Assembly: GCA_947630765.1 (NCBI GenBank)
Contig: CANRIX010000001.1
Span: 26,399 to 90,398, forward strand
Direction: 5' to 3'
From: an uncultured Clostridia bacterium
GTDB lineage: Bacteria > Bacillota > Clostridia > Oscillospirales > CAG-382
DNA: 64,000 nucleotides
Shown here: one piece after another, positions 19,437-51,467 of the stretch
How positions within the stretch are numbered: the first letter of the stretch is position 1
Layout of the letters: each line of letters opens with the position of its first letter
Translations under genes and position numbers: made by a program
The notes under the pieces: generated by a model
Seen by the model: the letters and a program-made list of their open reading frames with translations, nothing else
Told to the model about the DNA's origin: nothing
The model's database searches: none

Positions 19437-19454
19437 GATGTACCTCCGTATCAA

Positions 19455-19505
19455 TAACGCCCTCCACTCTCTGTAATGCGTCGTGATAATATGTGTTTTT
19501 GCTGC
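19455..19505 (-). pseudogene. relic of a second thyX 3' end (about 17 codons) fused in frame upstream of intact thyX
   Basis: The minus strand reads AAKTHIIITTHYREWRAL immediately after the GNAT stop codon. The intact gene has ATKTNIIITANYREWRAF at 18881-18932. Hand alignment gives about 85% nucleotide identity with one 3-nt indel. Confidence 0.6.
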
Positions 19506-36733: not shown

Positions 36734-36795
36734 AACGTTTGACCGTTCCTTCTTCCCGCTTTCTGCGGGAGGTTTTTGCAAAAACATACAAGTAT

Positions 36796-36824
36796 AGTAT
36801 AGCATAGAAACGGGCAAATTTCAA
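36796..36824 (-). promoter_or_regulatory. sigma-A-type promoter of trpS
   Basis: Minus strand reads TTGAAA, 17-nt spacer, TATACT, about 60 nt upstream of the trpS ATG. Confidence 0.55.
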
Positions 36825-37010
36825 TAAATTTCCTGCAAAAAAGTTCCAGGATTTCAAAAAAAATCCCCCTTTCGGGGCGAAAAAGACAGTTTTGCATATT
36901 TATTCGTTCGGCTTTTTTGCCTTTTCCTGTGTGGAAGTCTGCACCGCAAAATCGGATTTGGAAAGTATCACACCGGGATATTTTCCGAATGGCGGAAACT
37001 TTCCGCCGTC

Positions 37011-37050
37011 GAAAAAAAGGAAAACGGGCGGCTCGAAAGCCGTCCGTTTT
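37011..37050 (-). terminator. rho-independent terminator after the 37058-37579 ORF
   Basis: Minus strand shows stem ACGGACGGC / GCCGCCCGT around loop tttcga, followed by ttttccttttttt. Confidence 0.6.
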
Positions 37051-37057
37051 CGCTCGT

Positions 37058-37579
37058 TTACCCCTCGAAATCGAATCCGATGACGCGCCAGGTTTTCCGC
37101 CCCGCGTCCGTTTCGGAAGTAGTGCATGTAAATCGTATATGGAAGTAGAACACCTGCTGGTCGCCCCATTCGTCCGTCCGCGTGAAATCATATTCCGCGT
37201 AAGCGCTCGGCGAACCGTCCGAACCGAAGCCGCATAACGTCAACCCCTGCTCGTCCAGCGAGCTGATCCGCTCGCTGAACGCCCCCATGAGCGCGTCCTC
37301 GTCGGCGACAGTCAGCGCGGTCTTACGATCGCCTTTCAGGTAAGCGTTAAAGAAGCGAAACGCGGTGTTTTGCAGGCTCACATACCGTTCCGTCCCGCAA
37401 AAGGTTTCCAGTGTCAGCGGCATCCCATACGAGCCGCCCGCAAACGTGAGGTCTGTCGCGCTTTCCGCCGGAACGGGCGTCAGTTCGCACGAGAGGACCT
37501 TCCAATCCGCGTTCCAGTCCGCGTCTCCGGGGTTCGTGCAGCGACGCGGATACGCCTTGGTTCGCGTTTTGCAGGGCAT
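37058..37579 (-). CDS. uncharacterised 173-aa ORF, possibly the displaced C-terminus of the upstream M56 gene
   Basis: No signal peptide or convincing RBS. Same reading frame as the 811-aa gene. Its block SLQNTAFRFFNAYLKGDRKTALTVADE resembles the last 30 aa of the 811-aa protein (RLQQTVYRFLSDCIRTDQKGALAFARN). See the findings. Confidence 0.4.
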   Translation of the reverse strand: MPCKTRTKAYPRRCTNPGDADWNADWKVLSCELTPVPAESATDLTFAGGSYGMPLTLETFCGTERYVSLQNTAFRFFNAYLKGDRKTALTVADEDALMGAFSERISSLDEQGLTLCGFGSDGSPSAYAEYDFTRTDEWGDQQVFYFHIRFTCTTSETDAGRKTWRVIGFDFEG

Positions 37580-37690: not shown

Positions 37691-40126
37691 CTATGCGGGC
37701 AGGGTGTCCACATTTCGCGCGAAGGCCAGCGCCCCCTTCTGGTCAGTGCGAATGCAGTCGCTGAGAAAGCGGTAGACCGTCTGCTGCAATCGCAGGAATT
37801 CGGGTTCCCGAACGAACGCGCCCATAGTAACCGCTTGCCCTTCCGACGGCGAACCGGGCCCGACGGAGGCATATACCGACGCGTCTTTCAAGTAAAGCAC
37901 GCCGTTTTCGTCACGTGAAACGACGCCGGTCAAAACTTTTTCGCCCGTCATGCCGTCCGGCAGGGATACGGCAAGGGTTTCGGCTTCGCAAAAATCGCAT
38001 ACGCCGTTTTCCCCCTCCACGCAGACGGTCAGCTCGTCCGGGAGACGCAGGGTGTAGGCGTATCCGTTCGACCCGTCCGCAAGCGTTCCGCGCACCGCGA
38101 TCTGTCGTTCGACGTAAGGGGCAAGCCCGGATGCGTCCTCGTATTGTGTACCAAAATTCAAAAGGAAGTAGTTTTTTGCGCTCCCGATCGGGAAGAAATC
38201 CCATTTCGCACTTATTTCGTATTCCACGTTGCTCAAAAACACATACCGAACATTCGCGCTGGTCGAAACGAAGGATTGATACCACTGCCCGTTCTCCAAC
38301 TGCACCATTTCCTGCGTTTCATACTGCAAGTCTCCGGGGTCGCGGTAGGTTTCCGGGTCCTGCGCATGAAGCGACAATGCGTTCACATAGGCGGCTTTCA
38401 AAGGCGTCGGAAGGAACAAGGCGACGTCCTTCAGGTAAAAGATCCCGTCCTCGTCCAGCATGACCACGCCGGTCACCATTTCCGAATCAAATTCGTCCTT
38501 ATCCCAGAACAGCGGACCCAGCCAGCGCGGAAGCGCGATCCTGTCCGTTTGGTAGAATGCACAGGTCCCGCCTTCCCCTTCCACGCAAACGGTCAGTTCG
38601 TCCGTAAGCACCAAGACGCGGGAATATTTTTCGCCATCTCCGCCGTCCAGTTCTCCCCATACCGCGATCGGGCGTTCGACGTAACGGGCGACGCCGGTCT
38701 CGTCCTCGAATCGTGCGCCGGCATTGTAGAGATAATAGGTTTTTTCGCTTCCGATCGGGATGAAGTCCCAATTCGCGTTCATCTCGTACTCCGCGTTGCT
38801 CAAGAACACATACCGAATGTTCACGTCGGACGCGACGTAGGACTGGTACCATTGCCCGTCCTCCAATTGCACCATTTCCCGCGTTTCGCTCTGCAATTCA
38901 CCGGGATCGCGGTAGGTTTCCGGGTCCTGCACATGCAGCGAGGAAGCATTTTTATAATCCGCCTCTATACCGGCGACGGTTGTCCCGCCGGATGTTTCGC
39001 CGGACGTTTCGTTTGATACCTCGCTCGACGTTTCTCCAGACGTTTCGTTTGATGTTTCGTTTGATACCTCGCTCGATGTTCCTTCAGATGTTTCACCTGA
39101 GGTTTCGTCCGATACCTCGCTTGATGCCTCCTCCGACGTTCCGGCAGCCGTGCATACCATCAGCGTCAGAAGTGCAGCGCAGAGGACGACGGTCAGGCAG
39201 ATCGCCCAAACGGGAATTTTTCCTTTCATAATACGCGTAATCCTCTCTTTCACACTGACTTTGCCAAAGGACAACGGTGAGAAGACGGGGCTTCCGCCTT
39301 GACTGACAGAAAGCAGCGCCAGCGAATACGCTTTCCTGTCCGCTTCCGCCATGTTTTTGACGGTTTTTTCGTCGCAGGCGTACTCGATGTCCTTGCTGAG
39401 CAGGAGGTACGCCGCCCAAACCAGCGGGTTGAACCAGTGTACGCAAAGCACCAGAAACGCGAGCGGTTTGAGGATATGGTCGAACCGCTTGATGTGCGAC
39501 TCCTCGTGTGCGATGTAGTACGGCCAGTCCGCCCGGTTCGCGGATGCCGGGATATAGATCAGCGGGCGGAAGAACCCGGACACGAACGGGGAACAATTTT
39601 GCCCCAGCACGCGCACCCGGCTGTCGTAAACGACCGCGTCCCGCACCTGGTAATGCAGCAGCAGCGAACTCGCAGTCAGGTAGCCGAGCATGACAATGAT
39701 CCCGCACACCCAGACCAAGGAAAGGATTTCGACCACGTCCACCGTCGATTCCTCCGGCGATGCGGCGCCCGGGACGGGTTGCGCAACGTCAGTGTCCAAC
39801 GTCGGGACGCTGTCCGGGACGACGTTCGGCACGTCGGTGTACGGCGTGGAGACGGTACCCGGGACGACGTTCGGCACATCATTCTGCACCGCCTCCGACA
39901 CGGACTGCGAAACGATTTCCTCCGCAGGCGACGGAAAGGGCGAAACGGAAGCCGGAAGCTCGATCAGCCCGACGGGAATGACCAGCCGTGCGAACACGAC
40001 CGCCCAAATCACGCACCGAAGAAAGGACGGGCCCTTCTTCAAAAGCGGGCGCAGGAGAATCGCCGCAAGCACGGCGATCGACGGAATGATTGAAGCGCTG
40101 CACAGACCGAGAAACAGTTCTTTCAT
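37691..40126 (-). CDS. M56 (BlaR1/MecR1-like) membrane sensor-protease, paralog A, with a large novel ectodomain
   Basis: 811 aa. TM helices, the M56 zinc site YIAHEESHIKRFDH, and FNPLVW..EYACDE. This is followed by a further TM, an S/E/T-rich linker and two about 180-aa tandem domains. Confidence 0.85.
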   Translation of the reverse strand: MKELFLGLCSASIIPSIAVLAAILLRPLLKKGPSFLRCVIWAVVFARLVIPVGLIELPASVSPFPSPAEEIVSQSVSEAVQNDVPNVVPGTVSTPYTDVPNVVPDSVPTLDTDVAQPVPGAASPEESTVDVVEILSLVWVCGIIVMLGYLTASSLLLHYQVRDAVVYDSRVRVLGQNCSPFVSGFFRPLIYIPASANRADWPYYIAHEESHIKRFDHILKPLAFLVLCVHWFNPLVWAAYLLLSKDIEYACDEKTVKNMAEADRKAYSLALLSVSQGGSPVFSPLSFGKVSVKERITRIMKGKIPVWAICLTVVLCAALLTLMVCTAAGTSEEASSEVSDETSGETSEGTSSEVSNETSNETSGETSSEVSNETSGETSGGTTVAGIEADYKNASSLHVQDPETYRDPGELQSETREMVQLEDGQWYQSYVASDVNIRYVFLSNAEYEMNANWDFIPIGSEKTYYLYNAGARFEDETGVARYVERPIAVWGELDGGDGEKYSRVLVLTDELTVCVEGEGGTCAFYQTDRIALPRWLGPLFWDKDEFDSEMVTGVVMLDEDGIFYLKDVALFLPTPLKAAYVNALSLHAQDPETYRDPGDLQYETQEMVQLENGQWYQSFVSTSANVRYVFLSNVEYEISAKWDFFPIGSAKNYFLLNFGTQYEDASGLAPYVERQIAVRGTLADGSNGYAYTLRLPDELTVCVEGENGVCDFCEAETLAVSLPDGMTGEKVLTGVVSRDENGVLYLKDASVYASVGPGSPSEGQAVTMGAFVREPEFLRLQQTVYRFLSDCIRTDQKGALAFARNVDTLPA
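37868..38959 (-). repeat. two tandem domain repeats of about 175-190 codons inside the paralog A ectodomain
   Basis: aa ~390-578 (YKNASSLHVQDPETYRDPGELQSETREMVQLEDGQWYQSYV...) versus aa ~579-753 (YVNALSLHAQDPETYRDPGDLQYETQEMVQLENGQWYQSFV...). Both end with G(I/V)(F/L)YLKD(V/A). Confidence 0.85.
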
Positions 40127-40324: not shown

Positions 40325-42082
40325 TTACGGACGAATCTGCGTTTCGGAAACCGGTTTGCCGACTTTTTGGTTCTGAATCAGGTCGAGAAGGGTCTCGGAC
40401 GATACCGTATAGTATGTGCGGTCGGAATCGTCCCCGCTTTCCTCACCGGCAGCAAGCAGCAGGAAATCCGGCTCCATGCTGTCCCCGTCCTGCGTCTGGA
40501 AAAGCTGTATTTCGTCGATTTGTTCCGCTTCCGACGGACTTTCGATCAATTCGCGGGAGGCGCCTGCCGAAAAATCGTAAAAGTACACGGCACTCTTCGC
40601 ATCCTCGCGCAGGAGATACAAAAAGCCGTAATTACTTCCCTGCGGGTCATACCAGGTCAGCCCCGAAACCGTCTGTCCGTCCGAAAGGTCCGCGAGTTTT
40701 TCCGTTTCCTTGAGGTCCGCATTGAAAAACCAAATCGCATTGTCCGACGCGACCGCCGCCCCGACGTCATTTACGCCGATCGAACGGATCTCGTCCGCTT
40801 CAAATACGATTTCGCAGCCCGAACCGTTCGCGTATTCGCTCAAAAGCAGGACGTTCCGGCTGCTCTCGTCGTCATAATCGTATTCCACATGGTACAGGAA
40901 TCGCTGATACCCGTCCAAACGGTAAACGCTGTGCAAATAAAAATCGGTGGAGCCGAGCCCGTATTCGCTCAATTGCTTTTTCAGTGCCTCGATCTCCGCG
41001 TTATCCAAAGGCAGATTTTGGCCATCGCCCGACGCATCGGAATCGGCGCTCGTATCCGCGTTATCGCTTTCGTTCGTCGCGTCGCCCGTCGGTGTGCTTC
41101 CGAGCGAGCACGCCATCAGCGTCAGAAGTGCCGCGCAGAGGACGACGGTCAGGCAGATCGCCCAAGCGGGATTTTTTCCTTTCATAATACGCGTAATCCG
41201 CTCTTTTACGCTGACTTTTCCGAAGGACAGCGGTGAGAAGACGGGGCTTCCGCCTTGACTGACGGAAAGCAGCGCCAGCGAATACGCTTTCCTGTCCGCT
41301 TCCGCCATGTTTTTGACGGTTTTTTCGTCGCAGGCGTACTCAATATCCTTGCTGAGCAGGAGGTACGCCGCCCATACCAGGGGGTTGAACCAGTGCACGC
41401 AAAGTACCAGAAATGCGAGCGGTTTGAGGATATGATCGAACCGCTTGATGTGTGATTCCTCGTGCGCGATGTAGTACGGCCAGTCCGCCCGGTTCGCGGA
41501 TGCCGGGATATAGATCAACGGGCGGAAGAACCCGGACACAAACGGGGAGCAGTTCTGCCCCAGCACGCGCACCCGGCTGTCGTAAACGACCGCGTCCCGC
41601 ACCTGGTAGTGCAGCAGCAGCGAACTCGCAGTCAGGTAGCCGAGCATGACAATGATCCCGCACACCCAGACTAGGGAAAGGATTTCGACCACGTCCACCG
41701 TCGATTCTGCTGCCGAATCGGCGCCCGGAACGGGTTGCACAACGTCAGTGTCCAACGTCGGGACGCTGTCCGGGATAATGTTCGGCACGTCGGTGTACGG
41801 CGTGGAAACGGTACCCGGAACGACGTTCGGCACATCATTCTGCACCGCGTCCGGCATAGATAGCGAAACAGTTTCCTCCGCAGTCGACGCGAAGGGCGAA
41901 ACGGGAGCCGGGAGCTCAATCAGCCCGACGGGAATGACCAGCCGAGCAAACACGACCGCCCAGATCACGCAGCGAAGAAAGGACGGGCCCTTCTTCAGCA
42001 GCGGGCGCAGGAGAATCGCCGCAAGCACGGCGATCGACGGAATGACCGAAGCGCTGCACAGACCAAGAAACAGTTCTTTCAT
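40325..42082 (-). CDS. M56 (BlaR1/MecR1-like) membrane sensor-protease, paralog B, with a different ectodomain
   Basis: 585 aa. N-terminal ~325 aa as in paralog A, including HEESHIKRFDH. The C-terminal ~255 aa (LGSTPTGDATNESDN...YRLDGYQRFLYHVEYDYDD...) is unrelated to paralog A. Confidence 0.85.
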   Translation of the reverse strand: MKELFLGLCSASVIPSIAVLAAILLRPLLKKGPSFLRCVIWAVVFARLVIPVGLIELPAPVSPFASTAEETVSLSMPDAVQNDVPNVVPGTVSTPYTDVPNIIPDSVPTLDTDVVQPVPGADSAAESTVDVVEILSLVWVCGIIVMLGYLTASSLLLHYQVRDAVVYDSRVRVLGQNCSPFVSGFFRPLIYIPASANRADWPYYIAHEESHIKRFDHILKPLAFLVLCVHWFNPLVWAAYLLLSKDIEYACDEKTVKNMAEADRKAYSLALLSVSQGGSPVFSPLSFGKVSVKERITRIMKGKNPAWAICLTVVLCAALLTLMACSLGSTPTGDATNESDNADTSADSDASGDGQNLPLDNAEIEALKKQLSEYGLGSTDFYLHSVYRLDGYQRFLYHVEYDYDDESSRNVLLLSEYANGSGCEIVFEADEIRSIGVNDVGAAVASDNAIWFFNADLKETEKLADLSDGQTVSGLTWYDPQGSNYGFLYLLREDAKSAVYFYDFSAGASRELIESPSEAEQIDEIQLFQTQDGDSMEPDFLLLAAGEESGDDSDRTYYTVSSETLLDLIQNQKVGKPVSETQIRP

Positions 42083-42250
42083 TTTCTATTCCCTCCCTGT
42101 CGTCGTTGGAATTCTTTTGCCAGATCCACTTTTCCGGGGAAATGCATGCCTTTGCGATTCCGATGTACGCATCTCGCTGTCTCGTTTGAATTAGTATTGT
42201 TCGTTATTCCTATGCGGTGAGTATATCACAATATACCCATCCTGTCAAGA
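41105..42250 (-). repeat. copy 2 of the roughly 1.1-kb direct duplication
   Basis: Same as copy 1, but the leader carries an extra 68 nt (42112-42179). Boundaries are approximate. Confidence 0.85.
42220..42248 (-). promoter_or_regulatory. promoter of M56 paralog B
   Basis: Minus strand reads TTGACA, 17-nt spacer, TATACT (tTGtgaTATACT context). Homologous to the paralog A promoter. Confidence 0.6.
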
Positions 42251-42333: not shown

Positions 42334-42362
42334 TTGACAAATGTAAGTGCATGTGTTATACT
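42334..42362 (+). promoter_or_regulatory. promoter of the blaI operon
   Basis: TTGACA (42334-42339), 17-nt spacer, TATACT (42357-42362), with an extended -10 TG. Confidence 0.65.
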
Positions 42363-42383
42363 GCACTTACAAAAGTAAGTGGA
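42343..42383 (+). promoter_or_regulatory. putative BlaI operator: three half-sites forming two overlapping palindromes
   Basis: GTAAGTGCA (42343-42351), 10-nt spacer, TGCACTTAC (42362-42370), aaaa, GTAAGTGGA (42375-42383). The first pair is a perfect 9-bp inverted repeat spanning the -10. The second pair (CACTTAC-aaaa-GTAAGTG) covers the +1/RBS region. Confidence 0.6.
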
Positions 42384-42397
42384 AAGGGAGCACCCAT

Positions 42398-42775
42398 ATG
42401 GAACTGAAAGAAATTCATCTCGGAGAAGCGGAGACGCGCTTCGCAAAAATCGTCTGGCAGAACGAACCTGTCACCACGAGCGCACTATATCGCCTGAGCA
42501 AGGAGGCGCTCGGCTGGACCAACAGCACGACCTTCACCGTTTTGCGGCGACTGTGCAAAAAGGGACTTTTTCGGACGGAAGAAGGCGTTGTCACGTCCCT
42601 CGTCTCGCGAAAGGACTTCTTTGCCGAGCAAAGCCAGAAATTCGTCAGCGAGAGCTTCGACGGGTCGTTCCCGTCCTTCCTCGCCGCCTTTTCGGAGCGG
42701 CAGAAACTCACCCCGGAGGAGATCGAAGCGGTCCGCAGCATGATCGAAAAATTTGAAAAGGGGGAAGGATCATGA
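42398..42775 (+). CDS. blaI: BlaI/MecI/CopY family transcriptional repressor
   Basis: 125 aa from MELKEIHLGEAETRFAKIVWQ. Winged-helix block TTFTVLRRLCKKGLFRTEEG and C-terminal dimerisation-type helix. Overlaps the next gene by 4 nt. Confidence 0.85.
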   Translation: MELKEIHLGEAETRFAKIVWQNEPVTTSALYRLSKEALGWTNSTTFTVLRRLCKKGLFRTEEGVVTSLVSRKDFFAEQSQKFVSESFDGSFPSFLAAFSERQKLTPEEIEAVRSMIEKFEKGEGS

Positions 42776-44046
42776 ACCTGGAGCAATTGTTTTTGTCCCT
42801 GCTCAATCGCAGCCTTGCGGCGTGCTGGCTGATCCTTGCGATCATCATTCTGCGTCCGTTTCTGCGCAGAGTGTCGCGGTCGCTTTGCTGTGCGTTGTGG
42901 GGTCTTGTGGCGTTTCGGTTGCTTTGCCCGTTCCCGGTTCGGAGCGTGTTGAGCCTGATCCCGAGCGTGGAAACCGTTCCGACGGATCTCGCTTCGGCGA
43001 CGACCATCCTTGACGGGCTCCTTCCCGTAGGATCGCAAACGGGAGACGCTCTTACGTCCTCCCCGTCCGACGTCCCCGCGACCGCACCCGCCGCGCTAAC
43101 GCTTTTGCAGGTCCTGACGTGGATATGGCTGATCGGGGTTGCGATGCTCCTCCTATATGCGTTGGCGTCCTCCCTGCGGATATACCGCTGTGTGCGGGAG
43201 TCTGTTCGGCAGGAAGGCGGGTACTGGATGTGCGACCGGGTCGATTTTCCGTTCGTGATCGGCTTTTTCCGCCCGCGTATCATTCTGCCGTTTGAAGTGG
43301 ATCGGCAGGACCTTCCGTACATTTTAGCGCACGAGCGGGCGCATATGGCACGGCACGACCATTGGCGCAAGCCGATCGCATTCCTGCTCCTTTCCGTGTT
43401 CTGGTTCCAGCCGGTGTTCTGGATCGCCTATCATCTGCTTTGCAGGGATGCGGAATTTGCCTGCGACGGGCGTGCGCTCCGCAGTCTGGGAATCGACAAG
43501 GAAAGCAAGGCGGGCTACGCGATGGCACTGCTGAAAAGCTGCCCCCAGCGCTCCTACGCCGCAAAGCTGACCGGCCCGTTGGCGTTCGGTGGTCTGCAGA
43601 TCAAGCGTCGGGTGGATTCCGTGCTGACGTATAAGCGACCCACGACGGTGCGGATGCTGGCGGCGCTGCTGATGTGCGCGGTGCTGGCGGTATGCTTCCT
43701 GACCGACCCGGAAGTCGAAGCGCATGCGGTCGCGGACACCTCCCCGGCGGAAACCGCCCCGATCGAAACCCCTCCCGAAGAGGACGCGACGTCCCTGCCC
43801 GCCGAAGCGCCGGAAGGAATGACGGCGAACCGATCGGAGCAGGAGGACGAAACCACAATATGGTATCTTTCTGAAATCTTTCAGTATTTCGTGGAAGAGC
43901 TTGGATACGACCCGCAGTACATCTTGGACTGGGCGATCGATCAGGTAAATCGTGAATATCCGGACGGCGAAAATTTTATGTTGATCATTGATATTGACGT
44001 CGCCACCTATCTGGAAACGGGCAAAATGATCAAGGTCGCGCAATAA
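42772..44046 (+). CDS. M56 (BlaR1-like) membrane sensor-protease, paralog C (cognate of blaI)
   Basis: 424 aa. Blocks FFRPRIILP, zinc site ILAHERAHMARHDH and FQPVFW..EFACD. A short acidic linker precedes a unique ~90-aa C-terminal domain. Confidence 0.85.
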   Translation: MNLEQLFLSLLNRSLAACWLILAIIILRPFLRRVSRSLCCALWGLVAFRLLCPFPVRSVLSLIPSVETVPTDLASATTILDGLLPVGSQTGDALTSSPSDVPATAPAALTLLQVLTWIWLIGVAMLLLYALASSLRIYRCVRESVRQEGGYWMCDRVDFPFVIGFFRPRIILPFEVDRQDLPYILAHERAHMARHDHWRKPIAFLLLSVFWFQPVFWIAYHLLCRDAEFACDGRALRSLGIDKESKAGYAMALLKSCPQRSYAAKLTGPLAFGGLQIKRRVDSVLTYKRPTTVRMLAALLMCAVLAVCFLTDPEVEAHAVADTSPAETAPIETPPEEDATSLPAEAPEGMTANRSEQEDETTIWYLSEIFQYFVEELGYDPQYILDWAIDQVNREYPDGENFMLIIDIDVATYLETGKMIKVAQ

Positions 44047-44087
44047 GCTCTCGTGGAAAAATTCCGACAAAAAAAGAAAAGGGGGAA

Positions 44088-45044
44088 ATGAAGATGAAAG
44101 TTACACGGCAGTTTCCAAAACTTTTGGCGGTGGGTTTGGTTCTCGCAATGACCCTTTCGTCCCTTTCCGGGTGCGATAAGGAGGAACAGACCTCGGCGGG
44201 GATGGTCAGCGATTTTGAGTCGCAAACGCACATTCAGGTCAGCGCACCGGCGGCGGAATCGACTTCCGGCGAAACAATTTCCGGCGAAACGAGCGATAGC
44301 ACGTCGAAAGAACCGCTTTCCGGCGAATTTGTCGTCAGCGAAAAGAAGTACGATTACAAAGATGGGAATCTGGAACTGCTCTACGTCGAAAATCAAACGA
44401 ACCGGCATTGCAACGTGACAATTCACGGGAAATACCTCGACGAGAACGGCGAAACGATTCGGGAGGAAACGCAAACCTATATTTGTTTCTCTGCAGGCTG
44501 GGCGAATTACTTTCAATTCTATCCGAGAATGACATTTAACGGTTTTTCCTACGAGATAGAAACCGAAGAATATGTGAAGGAACCGCTTTATAGCGACGAG
44601 AACGGAACGCCGCTTGTGTCTTACCTCAATATCCGTTATGTGAAAAATATGTATTGGATACGCGATTTTTTTACCGGAGGCGTAGAGGCAAGGACCATGG
44701 TATTCGATACTGTCATAGAAAATCATCACCCGACAGTATCCATCAGCGCAGAGTACTACGTCATTGTATTTGACGAACAAGGGGAAATCTATTTATTGGG
44801 TACCGAATATGACGATATGGCTTTTGGAGTTGGAAATGGTGTCTTTGGTACGTGTATCGACCCGGTCGGGACGGGGGACAATGGGGAAACGCGCGTTCCT
44901 ACACCGATTTGGATGCAGGAGTTAGGACAGGATGAAACGGTTCCGGAGAACGTGCAGGGCGTCTTTACCGCCGTTTACGCTTTGATCGATGTGGTCGATT
45001 ATCAAGAATATGTGAAGCAACTTCATTCGGACGGGATTGGGTAA
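44088..45044 (+). CDS. lipoprotein, paralog 1 of an uncharacterised tandem family
   Basis: Lipobox LSSLSGC, a TSGET-type linker, then conserved blocks EFVVSEKKYDYKD, NRHCNVTIHGKYLDENGETIREETQT and PENVQGVFTAV. Confidence 0.85.
   Translation: MKMKVTRQFPKLLAVGLVLAMTLSSLSGCDKEEQTSAGMVSDFESQTHIQVSAPAAESTSGETISGETSDSTSKEPLSGEFVVSEKKYDYKDGNLELLYVENQTNRHCNVTIHGKYLDENGETIREETQTYICFSAGWANYFQFYPRMTFNGFSYEIETEEYVKEPLYSDENGTPLVSYLNIRYVKNMYWIRDFFTGGVEARTMVFDTVIENHHPTVSISAEYYVIVFDEQGEIYLLGTEYDDMAFGVGNGVFGTCIDPVGTGDNGETRVPTPIWMQELGQDETVPENVQGVFTAVYALIDVVDYQEYVKQLHSDGIG
44262..44291 (+). repeat. 2 copies of the 15-nt unit acttccggcgaaacg (TSGET linker repeat)
   Basis: Read directly from the sequence. Paralog 3 has 3 copies of this unit. 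Confidence 0.85.
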
Positions 45045-45072
45045 AGAAAACGGAAGAAAGGAAGGATTGGTT

Positions 45073-45951
45073 TTGTACATGCAAGGGAAAAGGATTTTTA
45101 CGTTTGTTTTACTGCTCGCGATGACGATTTCCGTATTTTCCGGGTGTAACAAGGAGGAACAGACCTCGGCGGGGACGGTCAGCGATTTTGAGTCGCAGGC
45201 GCATTTTCAAGTCGGCGTGTCGGAGGGGGAATCCTCTTCCGGCGATACTTCAAATGCACCGGTTTCGGGTGAATTTGTCGTCAGCGATAAAAAGTATGCT
45301 TACAACGACGCGAATCTCGTGCTGCTGAATGTGGAAAACAAAACGGACCGCCACTACAATGTGACGATTCACGGGAAATACCTCGACGAGAACGGGGAAA
45401 CGATTCGGGAAGAAACGCAAACATTCGAGGCTTTTCCCGCCGGATGGTCGAACCACTTCATTTTCTACCCGAAAATCGCTTTTGACAGATTTACATTTGA
45501 ACTGGAAACAGAAGCGTACGTGCCTGACCGTCTGACCTCCGACAGCGAGGGGAACCCATTAGCGTCCTACATGGAATTATCCTACGAAAAAACTTTGCAA
45601 TGGCTGGATGGTTGGGGAAATGATCACGGTTCTCTGTATTTTACCGCATTTATGGAAAATCATCATCCGAGCGTGACGATCGGTTCAGATTTTCATGTGA
45701 TCCTGCTTGACGCGAATGGGGAAATCTATATAACGGATTATGAGTTCATTGATAATGGTACAAGCGGTACTCAGTGTACGCCTGTTGGCGGCGAGGACGA
45801 CGGGAAAAACAGTACGGAAATTTATCTCTTAGAACACATCCTTGAGGGAAGGGAACCGATCCCTGAAACTGTGCAGGGGAAGTTTACTGCAATTTTTGCG
45901 ATTGCGACACCGTGGGACATGGATGTAGCGGCGCAAAGGGGTTTGGTTTGA
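45073..45951 (+). CDS. lipoprotein, paralog 2
   Basis: Lipobox SVFSGC. The start is TTG at 45073 by analogy with paralog 3, or ATG at 45079. Shared blocks NVTIHGKYLDENGETIREETQTFEAFPAGWSN. Confidence 0.85.
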   Translation: MYMQGKRIFTFVLLLAMTISVFSGCNKEEQTSAGTVSDFESQAHFQVGVSEGESSSGDTSNAPVSGEFVVSDKKYAYNDANLVLLNVENKTDRHYNVTIHGKYLDENGETIREETQTFEAFPAGWSNHFIFYPKIAFDRFTFELETEAYVPDRLTSDSEGNPLASYMELSYEKTLQWLDGWGNDHGSLYFTAFMENHHPSVTIGSDFHVILLDANGEIYITDYEFIDNGTSGTQCTPVGGEDDGKNSTEIYLLEHILEGREPIPETVQGKFTAIFAIATPWDMDVAAQRGLV

Positions 45952-46028
45952 GTCATTCTGAGGAATGGCTGAGAACCGTGGTTGGTTGGACGGGTTGAGC
46001 CGAATGGGACAGAAAGGAAGGATTTGTT

Positions 46029-46982
46029 TTGTATCTGCAAGGAAAAAGGATTTTTACGTTTGTTTTACTGCTCGCGATGACGCTTTCCGTATTTTCCGGG
46101 TGCGATAAGGAGGAACAGACCTCAGCGGGGACGGTCAGCGATTTTGAGTCGCAAACGCATATTCAGGTCAGCGCACCGGCGGCGGAATCGACTTCCGGCG
46201 AAACGACTTCCGGCGAAACGACTTCCGGCGAAACGAGCGATAGCACGTCGAAAGAACCGCTTACCGGCGAGTTTGTCGTCAGCGAAAAGAAGTATGACTA
46301 TAAAGACGCGAATCTGGAATTACTCTACGTCGAAAACCAGACGAACCGGCATTGCAACGTGACGATTCACGGGAAATACCTCGACGAGAACGGCGAAACG
46401 ATTCGGGAAGAAACACAGACTTTCGAGGCATTTCCGGCGGGCTGGTCGAACAACTTCATTTTCTACCCGAAAATCGCTTTTGACAGTTTCACCTATGAAT
46501 TGGAAACGGAAGAATATGTAACCGACCCGATGTTTTCCGACGCGGACGGGAATCCCCTTGCGTCCTACATCGAATTGACGTATGAGAAAAAATTGTATTG
46601 GATCCGTGGATCAGCGGGCGTAGATGAGAACGGTCACCCTATAGAAGCAAGAGAATTGTTATTCGACGCCGAAATGAAAAACAATCATCCGACGGTAACA
46701 ATAGGGGCAGACTTTCATGTGCTGGTTCTCGATACGGACGGAAACATTTTTATGACGGATTATGATTATCCCGTTCCATATGGCAATAGCGGAGCTATAA
46801 CAGGTCCTGTGGGGAGTGAAGATGATGGCAAATCCCTTACGCAGATTTGTCTTTTTCAGCAAGAACCGGGGCTTGACGAGATCATTCCGGAGAACGTACA
46901 GGGAGTATTTACCGCGGTTTTTGCGATAAAAGATGCCCTTGATTTTGAGAAACTTGCGGCGCAAGTCAAACAGCCCGAATAG
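46029..46982 (+). CDS. lipoprotein, paralog 3 (mosaic of paralogs 1 and 2)
   Basis: TTG start after RBS aaaggaagga. Signal peptide as in paralog 2, the next ~90 aa as in paralog 1, the middle as in paralog 2, and the PENVQGVFTAV end as in paralog 1. Confidence 0.85.
   Translation: MYLQGKRIFTFVLLLAMTLSVFSGCDKEEQTSAGTVSDFESQTHIQVSAPAAESTSGETTSGETTSGETSDSTSKEPLTGEFVVSEKKYDYKDANLELLYVENQTNRHCNVTIHGKYLDENGETIREETQTFEAFPAGWSNNFIFYPKIAFDSFTYELETEEYVTDPMFSDADGNPLASYIELTYEKKLYWIRGSAGVDENGHPIEARELLFDAEMKNNHPTVTIGADFHVLVLDTDGNIFMTDYDYPVPYGNSGAITGPVGSEDDGKSLTQICLFQQEPGLDEIIPENVQGVFTAVFAIKDALDFEKLAAQVKQPE
46191..46235 (+). repeat. 3 perfect tandem copies of the 15-nt unit acttccggcgaaacg
   Basis: Units at 46191, 46206 and 46221. 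Encodes TSGET x3. Confidence 0.95.
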
Positions 46983-47016
46983 ACCGCACACGATTGGGAA
47001 GGAAGGGTGAGAAACG

Positions 47017-47784
47017 GTGTTATTCTTACGGTCCTTATGGAAAAGCAAATACGACTTCCTCGCGGCGACGGCGATTCTGGTCGTGACGACGCAACTCTGG
47101 GAAGAACAGCGAATCCTCACCGAACCGGGGGTGAACAACTTCTTTCAGTCGTGCGAACTGCTCGTGCCGTTCCTCGTTCTGCTGCCGGTGTCGTTTCTGC
47201 TGTACGACAATTACGAAATCGAATTGGGGCTTATCAACGGGGTCTCGACGCTGAAATTGGCGCTCTGCAAGTTCTTTTCGACCGTTGTCGCGACGCTAAT
47301 CCCGTCGGTCGCGTGCTGTTTGCTCGTGCGGGAGAAGTACTACTGGTGCAACCCGCTGAGTGTTCGGATTCCGCTGGAGGTGCCGGAACACTTCAGGCTC
47401 TATCTGGCGCTGTCCGCCGTCGTGACGACGCTGTTCTTCGCGTCGCTGTTCCTGCTGTTGCGGGTGGTTTTGCGGAACTGCTATGCGCCGGTGGGGCTGG
47501 GAATCCTCGTGTTTTCGCTGTTTCAGCCCCGTATGCAGGACGTTTGCGACCTGACCCTGCCGTTTTCGCAAGCCCTGTTCGACCCGTTCGTCACGCGCTA
47601 CCTTATCGGCGACGCGGTGGCGAACGCGGGATTTACCGTGGAGGCGACCGGGCAGGTCGTCGACCCGTTCCCGCATTTGTGGACGTATAACCGCCTGCTG
47701 TTCTTCGGTTTGGCGGTCGTGCTCCTCGCCGTAACCTGTATCCTGCTTCGGCGCGAAAACTTACACGAATCGTTCGGAGATTGA
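47017..47784 (+). CDS. polytopic membrane protein (putative ABC-associated permease component)
   Basis: 255 aa with a GTG start after RBS ggaaggaaggg and about 6 hydrophobic helices. Its stop overlaps the next ORF. Confidence 0.65.
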   Translation: MLFLRSLWKSKYDFLAATAILVVTTQLWEEQRILTEPGVNNFFQSCELLVPFLVLLPVSFLLYDNYEIELGLINGVSTLKLALCKFFSTVVATLIPSVACCLLVREKYYWCNPLSVRIPLEVPEHFRLYLALSAVVTTLFFASLFLLLRVVLRNCYAPVGLGILVFSLFQPRMQDVCDLTLPFSQALFDPFVTRYLIGDAVANAGFTVEATGQVVDPFPHLWTYNRLLFFGLAVVLLAVTCILLRRENLHESFGD

Positions 47785-47798
47785 AAGGAGAACGCCCT

Positions 47799-48677
47799 AT
47801 GAACATCGAAATTACCAACCTGACGAAAATCTACCCGCGCGGGAAGAAAAAGGCGCTCGACGGCGTCCATATCACGATTGGTTCCGGCATTTTCGGACTC
47901 ATCGGTCGGAACGGCGCGGGAAAAACCACGCTCATGCGGATTTTAGCGACCATTATGAAGCCCACCGACGGGATGATTACCTTCGACGGGAAGGATTTGC
48001 AGGAACACAAAGAAGAATTCCGTTCCTCGCTCGGCTACCTGCCGCAAAGCACGAAACTCATGCCGCGTCTGAACATCGTGGAGTTTCTGGACTACGTCTG
48101 TATTCTCCGCAAGAGGAAGGACAAGAAGGAACGCAAGGAAATCATCGCGAACGCGATTGAAACGGTCGGTCTCGTCGGCGAGGAAAAGAAACTGTTGCGT
48201 AGCTATTCCGGCGGGATGCTCCGGCGCGCGGGCATCGCGCAAGCGCTGATTGGCAACCCGAAAGTGCTTATCATCGACGAGCCGACGACCGGGCTTGACC
48301 CGGAGGAACGGCTGTACTTCCTGAACCTGCTTTCCCGTATCGCGGCGGAGCGAACGATCGTCTTTTCGACGCACATCACGGCGGACATCGAGCATTTGTG
48401 CAACAACATTTGCGTGCTGGAGCAGGGAAAAGTCGAGTACCTCGGCGACAAGACGTCGTTCGTGTCGCGTATCGACGGGAAGCTGTTCGAGCTGACCGGC
48501 ACGCCGGAGCAGGAGGCGCTGTTGCGGCAGAATTCCACCGTTACGTCGGTCGCGTATGTGGACGGCAAGCCGCAAGTGCGGTATGTCGCACCCGCGCCGG
48601 TCGTGGAGGGCTCGCAACCCGTTTCCCCGACGCTGGAGGACGCGTACATCTACGCCCTCGGCGGCGTGAAACGGTAA
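47799..48677 (+). CDS. ABC transporter ATP-binding protein (ABC-2/bacitracin-lantibiotic-type ATPase)
   Basis: Start placed at MNIEITNLTKIY. Walker A GRNGAGKTTL, signature YSGGMLRR, Walker B LIIDEPTTGLD. C-terminal extension of about 70 aa. Confidence 0.9.
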   Translation: MNIEITNLTKIYPRGKKKALDGVHITIGSGIFGLIGRNGAGKTTLMRILATIMKPTDGMITFDGKDLQEHKEEFRSSLGYLPQSTKLMPRLNIVEFLDYVCILRKRKDKKERKEIIANAIETVGLVGEEKKLLRSYSGGMLRRAGIAQALIGNPKVLIIDEPTTGLDPEERLYFLNLLSRIAAERTIVFSTHITADIEHLCNNICVLEQGKVEYLGDKTSFVSRIDGKLFELTGTPEQEALLRQNSTVTSVAYVDGKPQVRYVAPAPVVEGSQPVSPTLEDAYIYALGGVKR

Positions 48678-48692
48678 AGGGGGGTGGACGGT

Positions 48693-49559
48693 ATGTTCCG
48701 AACCATCTACAAAAATACATGGAAAACCCTGTTCCGCTCGGTGACGTTCTGGCTCGCCGTGCTGGTCCTGCTGGGGATTTCCGTGTTTCACGTTTCCACG
48801 CAAGTGTCCTTTTACTGGGAATCCGCCGAAAACGTTCAGCGGTTCGAGCCAGAGTACGTCCCCGAAGTCCTTCCGGAAAGTCTCGTGCAGGAGGTCGACA
48901 ATGTCGTCAGCGGCGGCTTTCTGGTGTATCAAATCGCCGTTTTCGCAATCATCGCGACGGTGCTGGTGCTGAACCGGGACTACGGCGACCAATTTTTCGA
49001 GATTGAAAAAGCCGCCGGGGTGTCGCCGTTCCGCTACACCGCCGGGCGGCTGGCGGCGCTTCTGACCATTTCGGTGGTCGCACTGGAGGTCTTTTCGTTC
49101 GCGGCCCTGCACGCGCTGCTCATCGGCAAAGGCGGCGTCGTGGGGCAGAGCGCCTTGCAGACTATGCTGACGACCTTCCCGCGCCTGACGTGCGGCGTGC
49201 TGTTCAAGGGGATCCCGCACCTGTGCTTCTACATCGGGTTGACCTACCTGTTCGGCACGCTGTTCCGCAACGGGCTCGTCGGCGGTGCGGCGGGGTTTGC
49301 GAACGCGATTTTCTACTATGTGACCTATATGCTGTATCGGTATGACGACGGCTGGGTCACCTACTTTCAATACTTTTGTCCGTCGCCGAATGTTTTGCGC
49401 TTCTATGTGGGCTACTTCGGGACGGCGAATGGGGAGCGTATCTTCGCGATGTACGGCGTTACGACGGGCGGCATGGTGTTTTGCGTTGCCTTCCTCGTCG
49501 GGGTCGCGCTACTGTGCGCGGCGGTGTCCTATTGGCGCACCCGCCGCCGCGAGACTTGA
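48693..49559 (+). CDS. ABC-associated polytopic membrane protein, paralog a
   Basis: Begins MFRTIYKNTWKTLFRSVTFWLAVLVLL. Shares NRDYGDQFFEIEKAAG with the next gene. Confidence 0.75.
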   Translation: MFRTIYKNTWKTLFRSVTFWLAVLVLLGISVFHVSTQVSFYWESAENVQRFEPEYVPEVLPESLVQEVDNVVSGGFLVYQIAVFAIIATVLVLNRDYGDQFFEIEKAAGVSPFRYTAGRLAALLTISVVALEVFSFAALHALLIGKGGVVGQSALQTMLTTFPRLTCGVLFKGIPHLCFYIGLTYLFGTLFRNGLVGGAAGFANAIFYYVTYMLYRYDDGWVTYFQYFCPSPNVLRFYVGYFGTANGERIFAMYGVTTGGMVFCVAFLVGVALLCAAVSYWRTRRRET

Positions 49560-49579
49560 AGTCCGGGGGGCGAGGGGGT

Positions 49580-50410
49580 GTGCTGTATCGGACGATCTGT
49601 AAAAACAGTTGGAAAACCCTTTTGCGGTCGTGGTCGTTCTGGCTTGCCGTGGCGGTCGCGGCGGCGATCGCGGTGCGCGAGGGCTTTACGGAGTATGTCA
49701 CATATGCTTCGGGGTACGAGCCGGCCGTGTTGTCCTACGAGCGTTATGTGCAGGGGATCTATCACAGGCTGCCAATGCTGCTGTCGATCGCTTTGCCGTT
49801 CCTTACGGTGATAACGACGGTTCTCGTTGTACATCGGGATTATGGGGATCAATTTTTCGAGATCGAAAAAGCTGCGGGGATCAATCCCGCAGACTACCTG
49901 TTCGGTCGGTTCAGCGTGATTGCTATTACGACGGCGGCCGCGCAGTGGGTGATCGGCTTTCTGTGTATCTCGGTATTTGTCGTTCGGAAAGGCGGCGTGT
50001 ACGGTCTGACCGCATGGCAGTCCTGTCTTGATTCCGCGTGGAGATTGCTTTGCATTGATTTGTGTGCGGCCCTTCCGATGATCCTGTTTTATCTTGGTCT
50101 GACGTATTTGCTCGGCGCCTTGCTTCGGAGCGGAATTGCAGCGGCGATCGGCGGTCTGGGGTGCAGTGTGGCAAATTATGCGTTCACGATCCTGTACCAG
50201 TACCGCGCATTTCAAACGTATTTCGATTATGTTTCGCCGCCGCCGAAGATGCTGCTGCGATATGTGGTCTACCATCGGGAGGCAAACGGCGGTATCCAGT
50301 TGATGGGCGCCACGTTTGAAAAAGCGCTGCTTTCCGCAGGGATTTTGGTCGCCTTTTTTGCCGTGTGCGCGGGATGCTGTTACGGCTTGGTCAAAAGAAG
50401 GGAATGTTGA
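49580..50410 (+). CDS. ABC-associated polytopic membrane protein, paralog b
   Basis: GTG start at 49580 after a G-rich RBS, giving (M)LYRTICKNSWKTLLRSWSFWLAVAV, parallel to paralog a. Contains HRDYGDQFFEIEKAAG. Confidence 0.7.
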   Translation: MLYRTICKNSWKTLLRSWSFWLAVAVAAAIAVREGFTEYVTYASGYEPAVLSYERYVQGIYHRLPMLLSIALPFLTVITTVLVVHRDYGDQFFEIEKAAGINPADYLFGRFSVIAITTAAAQWVIGFLCISVFVVRKGGVYGLTAWQSCLDSAWRLLCIDLCAALPMILFYLGLTYLLGALLRSGIAAAIGGLGCSVANYAFTILYQYRAFQTYFDYVSPPPKMLLRYVVYHREANGGIQLMGATFEKALLSAGILVAFFAVCAGCCYGLVKRREC

Positions 50411-50411
50411 T

Positions 50412-50445
50412 ACAAAAAAGGGCTTCCGGGAAACCCCGGAAGCCA
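50412..50445 (-). terminator. strong hairpin terminator between convergent operons
   Basis: GGGCTTCCGGG / CCCGGAAGCC stem (50420-50444). On the minus strand it is followed by TTTTTTG. It serves the GGGtGRT operon and probably also blocks the plus-strand operon. Confidence 0.7.
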
Positions 50446-50465: not shown

Positions 50466-51467
50466 TTACTTTTTCATCGCTTCCTCGACCGCGACGGCGC
50501 AGGCGACGGTCGCGCCGACCATCGGGTTGTTGCCCATGCCGATCAAGCCCATCATCTCGACGTGCGCCGGGACCGACGAGGAGCCCGCGAACTGCGCGTC
50601 GCTGTGCATACGTCCCATCGAATCGGTCAGACCGTAGGACGCGGGACCCGCCGCGACGTTGTCCGGGTGAAGCGTGCGCCCCGTGCCGCCGCCGGACGCG
50701 ACGGAGAAGTACTTCTTGCCCTTCTCGACGCATTCCTTCTTGTAGGTGCCGGCGACGAGATGCTGGAAGCGGGTCGGGTTGGTGGAGTTGCCGGTGATGG
50801 AAACGTCCACGCCCTCGTGCCACATGATCGCGACGCCCTCGATCGGGTCATTCGCGCCGTAGCAGCGGACCTTCGCCTTTTCGCCGTCGGAATAGGCGAT
50901 CTCACGCACGATGGTCAGTTCCCCGGTCTTGAAATCGTAATCCGTCTGGACGTAGGTGAACCCGTTGATACGGGAGATGATCATCGCAGCATCCTTGCCG
51001 AGACCGTTGAGGATGACCCGCAGCGGCTCCTTGCGGACCTTGTTCGCCGTACGGGCGATCCCGATCGCGCCTTCCGCAGCGGCAAAGGACTCGTGCCCCG
51101 CGAGGAACGCGAAGCACTTGGTTTCCTCGCGCAGCAGCATCGCGCCGAGGTTGCCGTGCCCAAGCCCAACCTTCCGCGTCTCCGCGACGGAGCCGGGAAT
51201 GCAGAACGCCTGCAGACCAATCCCGATGGCTTCCGCCGCGTCGGAAGCGTTCTTGCAGCCCTTCTTGATCGCGACCGCACAGCCGAGCGTATACGCCCAG
51301 ACCGCGTTCTCGAAGCAGATCGGCTGTACGCCGCGAACGATGGCGTCCGCGTCGACGCCCTTTTCTTCGCACAGCGCCTTGGCTTCCTCCAGCGAGGAAA
51401 GCCCGTATTCTTTCAGACAGGCATTGATCTTTTCAATCCGTCTTTCGTATCCTTCAAATGTTGCCAT
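50466..51467 (-). CDS. GGGtGRT family protein (function unknown)
   Basis: 333 aa carrying the eponymous motif SVASGGGTGRTLHPDN. Confidence 0.85.
   Translation of the reverse strand: MATFEGYERRIEKINACLKEYGLSSLEEAKALCEEKGVDADAIVRGVQPICFENAVWAYTLGCAVAIKKGCKNASDAAEAIGIGLQAFCIPGSVAETRKVGLGHGNLGAMLLREETKCFAFLAGHESFAAAEGAIGIARTANKVRKEPLRVILNGLGKDAAMIISRINGFTYVQTDYDFKTGELTIVREIAYSDGEKAKVRCYGANDPIEGVAIMWHEGVDVSITGNSTNPTRFQHLVAGTYKKECVEKGKKYFSVASGGGTGRTLHPDNVAAGPASYGLTDSMGRMHSDAQFAGSSSVPAHVEMMGLIGMGNNPMVGATVACAVAVEEAMKK

Follow-up and report, generated by a model that had tools for sequence, protein, structure and literature searches.

We analysed a stretch of DNA of 64,000 nucleotides (nt), here called the window, from an uncultured Clostridia bacterium (Oscillospirales, CAG-382; contig CANRIX010000001.1, positions 26,399 to 90,398), with a focus on a nine-gene operon that begins with a BlaI-type repressor gene (42398-50410, plus strand). 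We favour, with modest confidence, the reading that this operon is a repressor-gated protection and export cassette, devoid of biosynthetic genes, from a family of ranthipeptide-like clusters, and that it stands here under a BlaI/M56 regulatory pair. The family occurs mainly in ruminant-gut Clostridia and would make Cys-rich peptides modified by radical S-adenosylmethionine (rSAM) enzymes. In full clusters of the relatives, a separate exporter accompanies the lipoproteins and a type 2 ATP-binding cassette (ABC-2) transporter, and peptide precursors are paired with lipoprotein or permease genes; the operon is therefore read as a detached protection arm.

The operon and its relatives in Cys-rich peptide clusters

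The first two genes encode the regulators: blaI (42398-42775), a winged-helix repressor of the BlaI/MecI/CopY family with 125 amino acids, and M56C (42772-44046), a BlaR1-like M56 zinc protease with 424 amino acids. Three paralogous lipoprotein genes of an unannotated family follow, namely Lip1 (44088-45044, 318 amino acids), Lip2 (45073-45951, 292 amino acids, with either the TTG at 45073 or the ATG at 45079 as possible start) and Lip3 (46029-46982, 317 amino acids). The remaining four encode a transporter: Mem6 (47017-47784), a third ABC-2-type (type V) membrane domain from a lineage-specific family; ABC7 (47799-48677), an ABC ATPase of the DrrA/GldA/NodI type with 292 amino acids; and the ABC-2-type permeases Mem8 (48693-49559, 288 amino acids) and Mem9 (49580-50410, 276 amino acids). 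All nine lie on the plus strand, the junctions measure -4, 41, 28, 77, 34, 14, 15 and 20 nt in order, and a purine-rich ribosome binding site precedes each downstream start. The original prediction, made from the letters of the sequence, had proposed a single operon of nine plus-strand genes with gaps of at most 77 nt; the list of open reading frames reproduces this layout and its coordinates, and the gene identities it gave were borne out by Pfam and NCBIfam matches, by the identity between Mem8 and Mem9 and by the structural match of Mem6. Its remark that blaZ and mecA are missing also holds, as Pfam and NCBIfam detected no beta-lactamase or penicillin-binding protein among the nine products and ten neighbouring genes scanned. 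The genes flanking the operon are housekeeping genes. The locus is present in two independent metagenome assemblies at 99.9% identity and is therefore not an assembly artefact.

We compared the window proteins by tblastn with 38 related loci (referred to by L numbers), which we gathered by looking up contigs and by scanning metagenomes and one genome per species. All those with a named source are metagenome-assembled genomes of ruminant-gut Clostridia. The Lip, Mem8/9, Mem6 and ABC7 families are kept together throughout these loci: on every contig that carries both genes, Mem6 is the immediate upstream neighbour of ABC7, ABC7 is 69-96% identical to the window copy, and Mem8/9-type genes are present in several copies interleaved with lipoprotein genes. 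In some relatives the cassette has expanded into single-strand arrays of more than 20 kb, and in the large arrays genes of a second unannotated lipoprotein family, LipB (about 420 amino acids), are interspersed among those for Lip and permeases (L009 1747-3030, 5499-8024 and 14701-15939; L026 7837-9111). The regulators differ between loci. BlaI and an M56 protein head the cassette in the window, L006 and L025, and an M56 fragment is found in L007; an OmpR-type response regulator and a histidine kinase are embedded in the arrays of L009-L014, and extracytoplasmic function (ECF) sigma factors lie at the cassette in L015, L026 and L042. This recurrence of one cassette under ECF sigma factors, OmpR/histidine kinase pairs and BlaI/M56 strengthens the earlier suggestion of an inducible, immunity-like envelope module.

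Genes for Cys-rich peptides adjoin Lip or Mem8 in at least eight independent loci (L002/3, L006, L008, L020, L022, L026/27, L030/35 and L032). These peptides have about 80-90 amino acids, a leader of the form MKKxIKLINNER and six or seven D-x(1-3)-C motifs, in which an Asp stands one to three residues upstream of each Cys, and their genes have good ribosome binding sites. Profile E-values were 1e-24 to 1e-36 for the scanned loci L002-L027, and the copies in L030, L032 and L035 were found by tblastn, outside the profile scan. A large database contains 107 clusters of the family, with lengths of 46-101 amino acids (66-101 in all but two); none is named, and no NCBIfam model matched the three members tested. 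The original prediction had regarded both signal and substrate of the operon as unknown. These findings narrow them to a candidate family of Cys-rich peptides, which could provide the inducer and the substrate alike.

The genes of the set Mem6-ABC7-Mem8-Mem9 are found downstream of an rSAM enzyme with a SPASM domain in L020/21, L022/23, L026/27 and L042/43, and directly downstream in L020-L023. Among NCBIfam models, this enzyme is closest to that of the ranthipeptide maturase PapB (E 1.4e-83), with the SCIFF and CcpM maturases next. Three cluster types combine the cassette with such an enzyme, acyl-AMP ligases, a carrier protein, a CPBP protease and a separate exporter. L042 (3264-19792) contains a complete cluster bordered by housekeeping genes. 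It begins with an ECF sigma factor, an acyl-AMP ligase, a carrier protein, a second ligase, a CPBP protease and the rSAM/SPASM enzyme, and continues with Lip, precursor, LipB, Mem8, Mem6 and ABC7, then precursor, Lip and Mem8, then a third precursor and finally an ABC_membrane exporter. The presence of this separate exporter leaves the ABC-2 module for immunity. Clusters of this type (L042, L026/L027, L020, L022 and L002/L044) carry as many as three precursors rich in Cys and Asp, each about 85 amino acids long, and in L002/L044 they include an additional FkbH-like gene. The type is undescribed as far as we could find.

With their PapB-like maturase and Cys/Asp-rich precursors, the relatives resemble ranthipeptide and sactipeptide clusters such as those of freyrasin (PapA/PapB), SCIFF, subtilosin (Alb) and thuricin CD (Trn). 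ABC genes for immunity or export are likewise present in the clusters of subtilosin and thuricin. The relatives differ from these in that the Asp lies upstream of the Cys (D-x1-3-C) rather than in a C-x3-D arrangement, in that the precursor family lacks an NCBIfam match, and in their acyl-AMP ligases, carrier protein and, in some, FkbH-like genes. The ligases and the carrier protein hint at an acylated peptide.

In contrast to ranthipeptide clusters, the window has neither maturase nor precursor. No precursor was detected by tblastn or by a six-frame profile search (best E about 1), and no rSAM enzyme, AMP-ligase, carrier protein, CPBP protease or recognition element of RiPPs (peptides made by ribosomes and modified after translation) was found in the 64 kb, so that about 42 kb upstream and about 14 kb downstream of the operon are free of biosynthetic genes. 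The combination of an rSAM/SPASM maturase with a Cys-rich precursor is found in L020-23, L026/27 and L042. In the closest syntenic relative, L006, a precursor-like open reading frame of 61 amino acids (4421-4606) lies between two lipoprotein genes of its BlaI-M56C operon and loses similarity after residue 50 or so. It may be decaying, and it hints that the BlaI-headed form derived from a producer cluster.

The same L006 peptide gene can be used to argue that the organism is a producer, with the operon as the arm for export, maturation and self-immunity, a precursor and rSAM enzyme outside the 64-kb window, and peptide-dependent autoinduction through BlaI/M56C in the way NisRK serves nisin. Clusters of this family are indeed sometimes split; L020 is broken by an IS110 element, and L002 has precursor and Lip genes with no rSAM gene nearby. 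We nevertheless consider a producer unlikely: biosynthetic genes are contiguous with the cassette in complete clusters, the long sequence on both sides of the operon contains none of precursor, rSAM, ligase or CPBP genes and the immediate flanks are housekeeping genes, and the L006 peptide is short, diverges after 50 residues and is perhaps on its way to being lost.

The association with precursors also bears on a more general explanation, in which the operon is an envelope-stress or antibiotic detoxification pump unrelated to Cys-rich peptides, M56C responds to a damaged wall or membrane or to an unrelated compound, such as bile, an ionophore or a secondary metabolite from plants, which the ABC-2 transporter pumps out, and the lipoproteins are accessory shields. 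In favour of it, many of the related loci lack a precursor on their contig, and ATPases akin to DrrA and GldA act with ABC-2 permeases in the export of diverse amphiphiles. Pairs of BlaI and M56 proteins that have no penicillin-binding domain are also common, with roles other than beta-lactam resistance, as in P. aeruginosa and M. tuberculosis. The repeated gene-by-gene interleaving in the order precursor, lipoprotein, permease is, on the other hand, difficult to account for with a generic pump. The families of the cassette are also very narrow (75 Lip3 homologues, 347 Lip representatives and 82 Mem6 homologues), and the expansion of the lipoproteins together with their variable C-terminal domains argues for many specific ligands. 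We regard such a pump as improbable.

The regulator pair and its putative operator

BlaI matches Pfam PF03965 (Penicillinase_R) over positions 8-117 with an E-value of 1.7e-22 and 80.4 bits (cut-off 22.6) and aligns over its full length with structures of MecI (1sd6/1okr) and BlaI (1sd4) at an E-value of 3e-9; it has the winged helix and the C-terminal dimerisation helix bundle of these repressors in about 125 amino acids. It scores below the cut-offs of the NCBIfam BlaI/MecI models (best 42 bits versus 180-250). A CopY-type metal repressor was considered and rejected, as the C-terminal motif CxCx4CxC is not present, the last 70 residues contain no Cys and the CopY/TcrY model gives 40 bits against a cut-off of 122.

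M56C matches Pfam PF05569 (Peptidase_M56) with an E-value of 9e-42 and 143.7 bits, and contains the motif HERAH (HExxH) and about five hydrophobic segments according to hydropathy, as in M56 membrane proteases. The NCBIfam model blaR1_generic covers M56C only at model positions 166-325 of 585 (78 bits versus a cut-off of 400). A penicillin-binding sensor domain is absent from M56C, and no Pfam match to a transpeptidase or beta-lactamase was obtained. Beyond the last membrane segment an acidic, proline-rich linker leads to a globular ectodomain of about 70 amino acids, which is kept in L006 and L007, where lipoprotein genes directly follow as well; the M56 protein of L025 has an unrelated domain in its place. 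We looked for a common sensor domain among M56C, M56A/B (see below), the M56 protein of L025, the histidine kinase of L009, the anti-sigma candidate of L015, the sigma fusion of L004 and the MarR-like protein of L001 and found none; linkers rich in Ser, Thr and Glu are the sole feature common to these proteins.

Upstream of blaI, a sigma-70-type promoter (TTGACA-17-TATACT with TG extension, 42334-42362, plus strand) matches the consensus at 11 of 12 positions and overlaps a putative BlaI operator (42337-42381, plus strand). The latter consists of a perfect inverted repeat of 10+10 nt, TGTAAGTGCA-N10-TGCACTTACA (42342-42371), a second dyad, ACTTAC-AAAA-GTAAGT (42365-42380), and the direct half-sites ACAAATGTAAGTG and ACAAAAGTAAGTG, which are 32 nt apart. 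The inverted repeat and ACTTACAAAAGTAAGT extend over the -35 and -10 elements and contain the TACA/TGTA core of BlaI-family operators, and the 16-mer of the second dyad has one copy in the window, where 0.06 would be expected by chance. The strong promoter and the palindrome noted earlier are thus present, and BlaI would bind there. Both other BlaI-headed loci, L006 and L025, keep promoter and putative operator, with the TTGACAAATGTA... promoter again upstream of blaI. In L025 the two palindrome arms are altered together (TGTAGACAC / GTGTCTACA); this compensatory change is a small phylogenetic footprint that favours a real repressor site.

The regulatory head resembles the BlaI/BlaR1-blaZ and MecI/MecR1-mecA systems of staphylococci and Bacillus in its Penicillinase_R repressor gene, which overlaps the gene of an M56 zinc protease by 4 nt, and in a promoter overlapped by TACA/TGTA dyads, from which we predict autoregulation. 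It differs from them in several respects: M56C lacks the sensor domain similar to class D beta-lactamases, an Ala aligns with the scissile Asn of the repressors, the regulated genes encode lipoproteins and an ABC exporter instead of a beta-lactamase or penicillin-binding protein, the genes of repressor and sensor come first in the operon itself and do not diverge from the target, and two M56 paralogues without a repressor lie next door.

These paralogues are encoded on the minus strand, divergently from blaI. M56B (40325-42082) has 585 amino acids and matches Peptidase_M56 with an E-value of 1.6e-39, and M56A (37691-40126), downstream of it, has 811 amino acids. The N-terminal 330 residues or so are nearly identical between the two, their ectodomains are unrelated, and that of M56A contains an internal duplication of about 190 amino acids. 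They have their own promoter (42248-42220, minus strand) with a different palindrome, GTATAT-CACA-ATATAC (42221-42236); no copy of the blaI-type operator was found at this promoter, and there is no repressor gene of their own. M56B is possibly a further input to the same BlaI, which would link the pair to the operon. Between M56A and a class I (Trp/Tyr-type) tRNA synthetase gene lies an open reading frame of 255 amino acids (36424-37191, minus strand) that overlaps the 5' end of the synthetase gene and has no Pfam match; it is either spurious or a further unannotated gene. A Ser/Thr/Glu-rich linker of the SGETS type is common to the ectodomain of M56A (39000-39200), Lip1 (44230-44330) and Lip3 (46170-46290) and caused a spurious phmmer match (E 1e-4).

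Lipoproteins and ABC-2 transporter

All three lipoproteins have a signal peptide followed by a lipobox of the form L/F-S-G-C (LSGC in Lip1), as do LanI-type lipoproteins, and Cys25 is invariant across 40 family members. None matches a Pfam or NCBIfam family; a weak match of Lip2 to an FxLYD domain (E 0.08) was not used as evidence, and the database copy of Lip1 (P0007) has a different start codon. A word-indexed search retrieved 75 homologues of Lip3 at E <= 1e-3, and an exhaustive profile search found 347 cluster representatives of the wider family among 1.84 billion, none of them named. Pfam analysis of 50 distant relatives yielded only surface layer homology (SLH) anchors and low-complexity matches. 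In some family members SLH cell-wall anchors replace the lipid anchor.

An AlphaFold2 model of Lip3 (predicted local distance difference test (pLDDT) 88, predicted template-modelling score (pTM) 0.80) shows, after the signal peptide and lipobox, a conserved short tether motif immediately past the lipid-modified Cys (SDFESQxH), a disordered linker rich in Ser, Thr and Glu, and two beta-sandwich domains. The N-terminal beta-sandwich is 69-82% identical among the three paralogues and the C-terminal one 36-50%. The paralogues are mosaics: the signal peptide of Lip3 is closest to that of Lip2 (92%), and its tether and linker to those of Lip1 (95-96%). Judged from the sequences, this pattern suggests recombination between paralogues. 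The duplication units (44082-46604) take in the intergenic spacers. Metagenome contigs of the same strain, 99.9-99.97% identical to the window over 43642-48426, have 22 nt (3252-3273 in L040) where the window has 77 nt (46919-46995) that span the last part of Lip3 and the spacer after it, giving a Lip3 variant of 308 instead of 317 amino acids.

Searched with Foldseek against PDB, the whole Lip3 model retrieved generic beta-sandwiches (arrestin, transglutaminase C-domains and carbohydrate-binding modules) with E-values of at least 9e-4 and template-modelling (TM) scores of at most 0.2. The original prediction had proposed a comparison with NisI and SpaI; neither is among the 50 PDB matches listed. 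Profile searches with alignments of Lip, Mem8/9 and Mem6 against PDB sequences gave no match either.

Because carbohydrate-binding modules and a Bacteroides surface glycan-binding protein are among the weak fold matches, we also considered that the lipoproteins are adhesins or bind polymers such as plant glycans, that the ABC-2 transporter exports the surface component that displays them and that the peptides are secondary. The hosts are fibre-degrading gut Clostridia, and the replacement of the lipid anchor by cell-wall anchors in some members would suit such a role. All fold matches are, however, generic beta-sandwiches at TM scores not above 0.2, no locus contains a carbohydrate-active enzyme, sugar importer or solute-binding protein, and the tight coupling to ABC-2 permeases and RiPP genes is left unexplained. 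We think this very improbable. An importer served by solute-binding proteins was rejected: the transporter has the ABC-2 exporter fold, and the lipoproteins match no solute-binding protein family.

The four-part ABC module consists of one nucleotide-binding protein and three ABC-2-type membrane proteins. ABC7, in which the nucleotide-binding domain is a separate polypeptide, matches Pfam PF00005 (ABC_tran) with an E-value of 3e-31 and 109 bits. Its NCBIfam matches, all below the cut-offs, are led by GldA (181 bits) and DrrA (153 bits); galliderm_ABC (TIGR03740), the LanF equivalog model, reaches 125.9 bits against a cut-off of 309.75 and ranks under GldA, DrrA and NodI, so that ABC7 is not a LanF equivalog. 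A PADLOC scan for anti-phage systems produced generic P-loop matches for the ATPase and no system component, and scans for Rfam families and tRNAs gave nothing relevant. Mem9 marginally passes the cut-off of ABC2_membrane_2 (E 1.9e-6, 27.8 versus 27.2 bits), and Mem8 is 38% identical to it. Neither Mem6 nor Mem8 matches a curated family in Pfam or NCBIfam, and none of the three membrane proteins has an NCBIfam match at E <= 0.1, including the LanE/G (MutE/MutG-type) models.

Mem6 belongs to a family of 82 homologues among 5.8e9 proteins. It shows no BLAST similarity to Mem8/9, and hhalign gave a probability of 4.6% despite a common EIE..GV motif; the relationship was therefore settled by structure. 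The AlphaFold2 model of Mem6 (pLDDT 89, pTM 0.87) best matches PmtCD, NosY, ABCG5/G8, ABCG1, ABCG2, Wzm, CcmB/C and KpsM in Foldseek, and these top matches are all type V ABC membrane domains (probability 0.99-1.00, TM score 0.46-0.60). The six-helix ABC-2 fold is thus assigned to Mem9 by Pfam, to Mem8 by identity and to Mem6 by its model. We predict that Mem6 forms heterodimers with Mem8 or Mem9 as exchangeable partners.

The best structural match of Mem6, PmtCD (6xjh), is part of PmtABCD of Staphylococcus aureus, a type V exporter that removes membrane-active peptides (phenol-soluble modulins) and protects the cell. PmtABCD is controlled by the GntR-type regulator PmtR. Unlike the operon described here it has two ATPases, two permeases and no lipoproteins, and the identity to Mem6 is about 11%. 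A likeness in logic is that to LanI plus LanFEG (NisI/NisFEG and SpaI/SpaFEG), which the original prediction had drawn. Both combine a membrane-tethered lipoprotein with one ATPase and paralogous ABC-2-type permeases, and in lantibiotic self-protection, too, a transmembrane sensor makes expression inducible. In complete clusters of the relatives a separate ABC_membrane exporter recalls LanT, and the precursors adjoin lipoprotein genes. The likeness thus holds for the logic and for the position of the cassette in or next to RiPP-like clusters with an exporter of their own, but homology and family membership were not supported: Lip has no sequence or fold homology to NisI/SpaI in the PDB fold matches listed or in the PDB-sequence profile search, ABC7 falls outside LanF, and the permeases match no LanE/G model. 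There are also three membrane-domain genes, including the unique Mem6, three lipoproteins (elsewhere up to ten or more) with variable C-domains, a BlaI/M56 pair in place of the LanRK two-component system, and peptides of the rSAM rather than the lanthionine type.

The lipoprotein block has a G+C content of 48.1% against 58% in the rest of the operon, and the earlier hand counts of 43% (44581-44680) and 67% (20401-20500) are exact. At third codon positions the G+C fraction is 0.54-0.55 in the lipoprotein genes, 0.79 in Mem6, ABC7 and Mem8, and 0.80-0.84 in flanking core genes. An accessory origin of this AT-rich block, as had been suggested, is plausible, but we rejected the composition as proof of horizontal origin because Lip genes also fall below transporter genes at third positions in the G+C-richer loci L001, L004, L006 and L008. 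The most AT-rich kilobase of the window lies elsewhere (19001-20000; 45% G+C, GC skew -0.14) and is below the lipoprotein block. A G+C-rich hairpin with a stem of 10 bp and a loop of 4 nt (50421-50444, -21.7 kcal/mol) lies at the 3' end of the operon, between convergent genes. The strong terminal hairpin described earlier is therefore real, but its T-run is on the minus strand and the operon strand has only an upstream A-run, so that it serves primarily to terminate the convergent GGGtGRT gene (50466-51467).

Proposed mechanism and significance

We propose that at rest a BlaI dimer would occupy the dyads over the -35 and -10 elements and keep the operon low. The small ectodomain of M56C would register an extracellular cue, most likely the mature peptide of this family from neighbouring bacteria or the membrane damage it causes, whereupon the cytoplasmic zinc protease domain of M56C would cleave BlaI and derepress the operon, blaI and M56C included. 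The lipoproteins, anchored on the outer side of the membrane, would attach to the transporter through the conserved N-terminal beta-sandwich and the tether motif, and bind peptide variants through the variable C-terminal beta-sandwich. A transporter of two ABC7 copies and Mem6 paired with Mem8 or Mem9 would then expel the peptide from the membrane. The parts would share the work as LanI and LanFEG do, and as PmtCD does for phenol-soluble modulins. That there are several lipoproteins, and that their C-domains vary, suggests that several peptide variants are recognised.

Several points weigh against a protection cassette for peptides of this family. The link of these proteins to a peptide rests on genomic association, and many related loci, including the giant arrays L009 and L012, have no precursor on the contig. 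The fold of Lip has no specific match in PDB, and its binding of peptide and transporter is something we infer. BlaI has Ala-Phe, within FLAAF, where the Asn-Phe site at which BlaR1 cleaves BlaI/MecI aligns, and the 3' hairpin has no U-tract on the operon strand. The rSAM enzyme of the relatives scores 281 bits with the PapB model, under the cut-off of 340, and the precursor family is undescribed. As only 64 kb of the genome are visible, biosynthetic genes could lie elsewhere, in which case the cassette would serve a producer. Finally, ranthipeptides as a class are without well-documented antimicrobial activity (PMC13289728), so that immunity may be the wrong word.

A bolder version, which we put forward as a tentative and on the whole doubtful possibility, would make M56C the first receptor-protease of the BlaR1 type with a ribosomal peptide as ligand, so that a non-producer eavesdrops on its competitors. 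The ectodomain of M56C, alone or with the lipoproteins, would recognise a Cys-rich rSAM peptide of neighbouring Clostridia, and cleavage of BlaI would switch on matched units of variable lipoproteins and ABC-2 immunity proteins. M56A and M56B would be extra inputs, one repressor integrating three different extracellular cues. If true, the rumen microbiome would possess a new kind of modular bacteriocin immunity, defined by the Lip, Mem6 and precursor families.

In the literature that could be searched, we found no precedent for BlaI/M56 with ABC transporters, with bacteriocin or RiPP immunity or in Clostridia. The novelty of the protection cassette lies in its unannotated families and its unusual regulator, as inducible peptide immunity by a lipoprotein and an ABC-2 transporter is already known. 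Three unannotated, co-evolving families (the Lip lipoproteins, Mem6 and the peptide precursors) come to light together with a RiPP-like cluster type. Firmicutes and Bacteroidota have very many BlaR1-like M56 proteases that lack a penicillin-binding domain, and hardly any of their signals have been identified; for these the locus offers a candidate class of ligands, Cys-rich peptides of about 85 amino acids, and a matched output. If the cassette confers resistance, it would show how non-producers acquire orphan immunity under a different regulator, which bears on the use of bacteriocins to steer the rumen microbiota.

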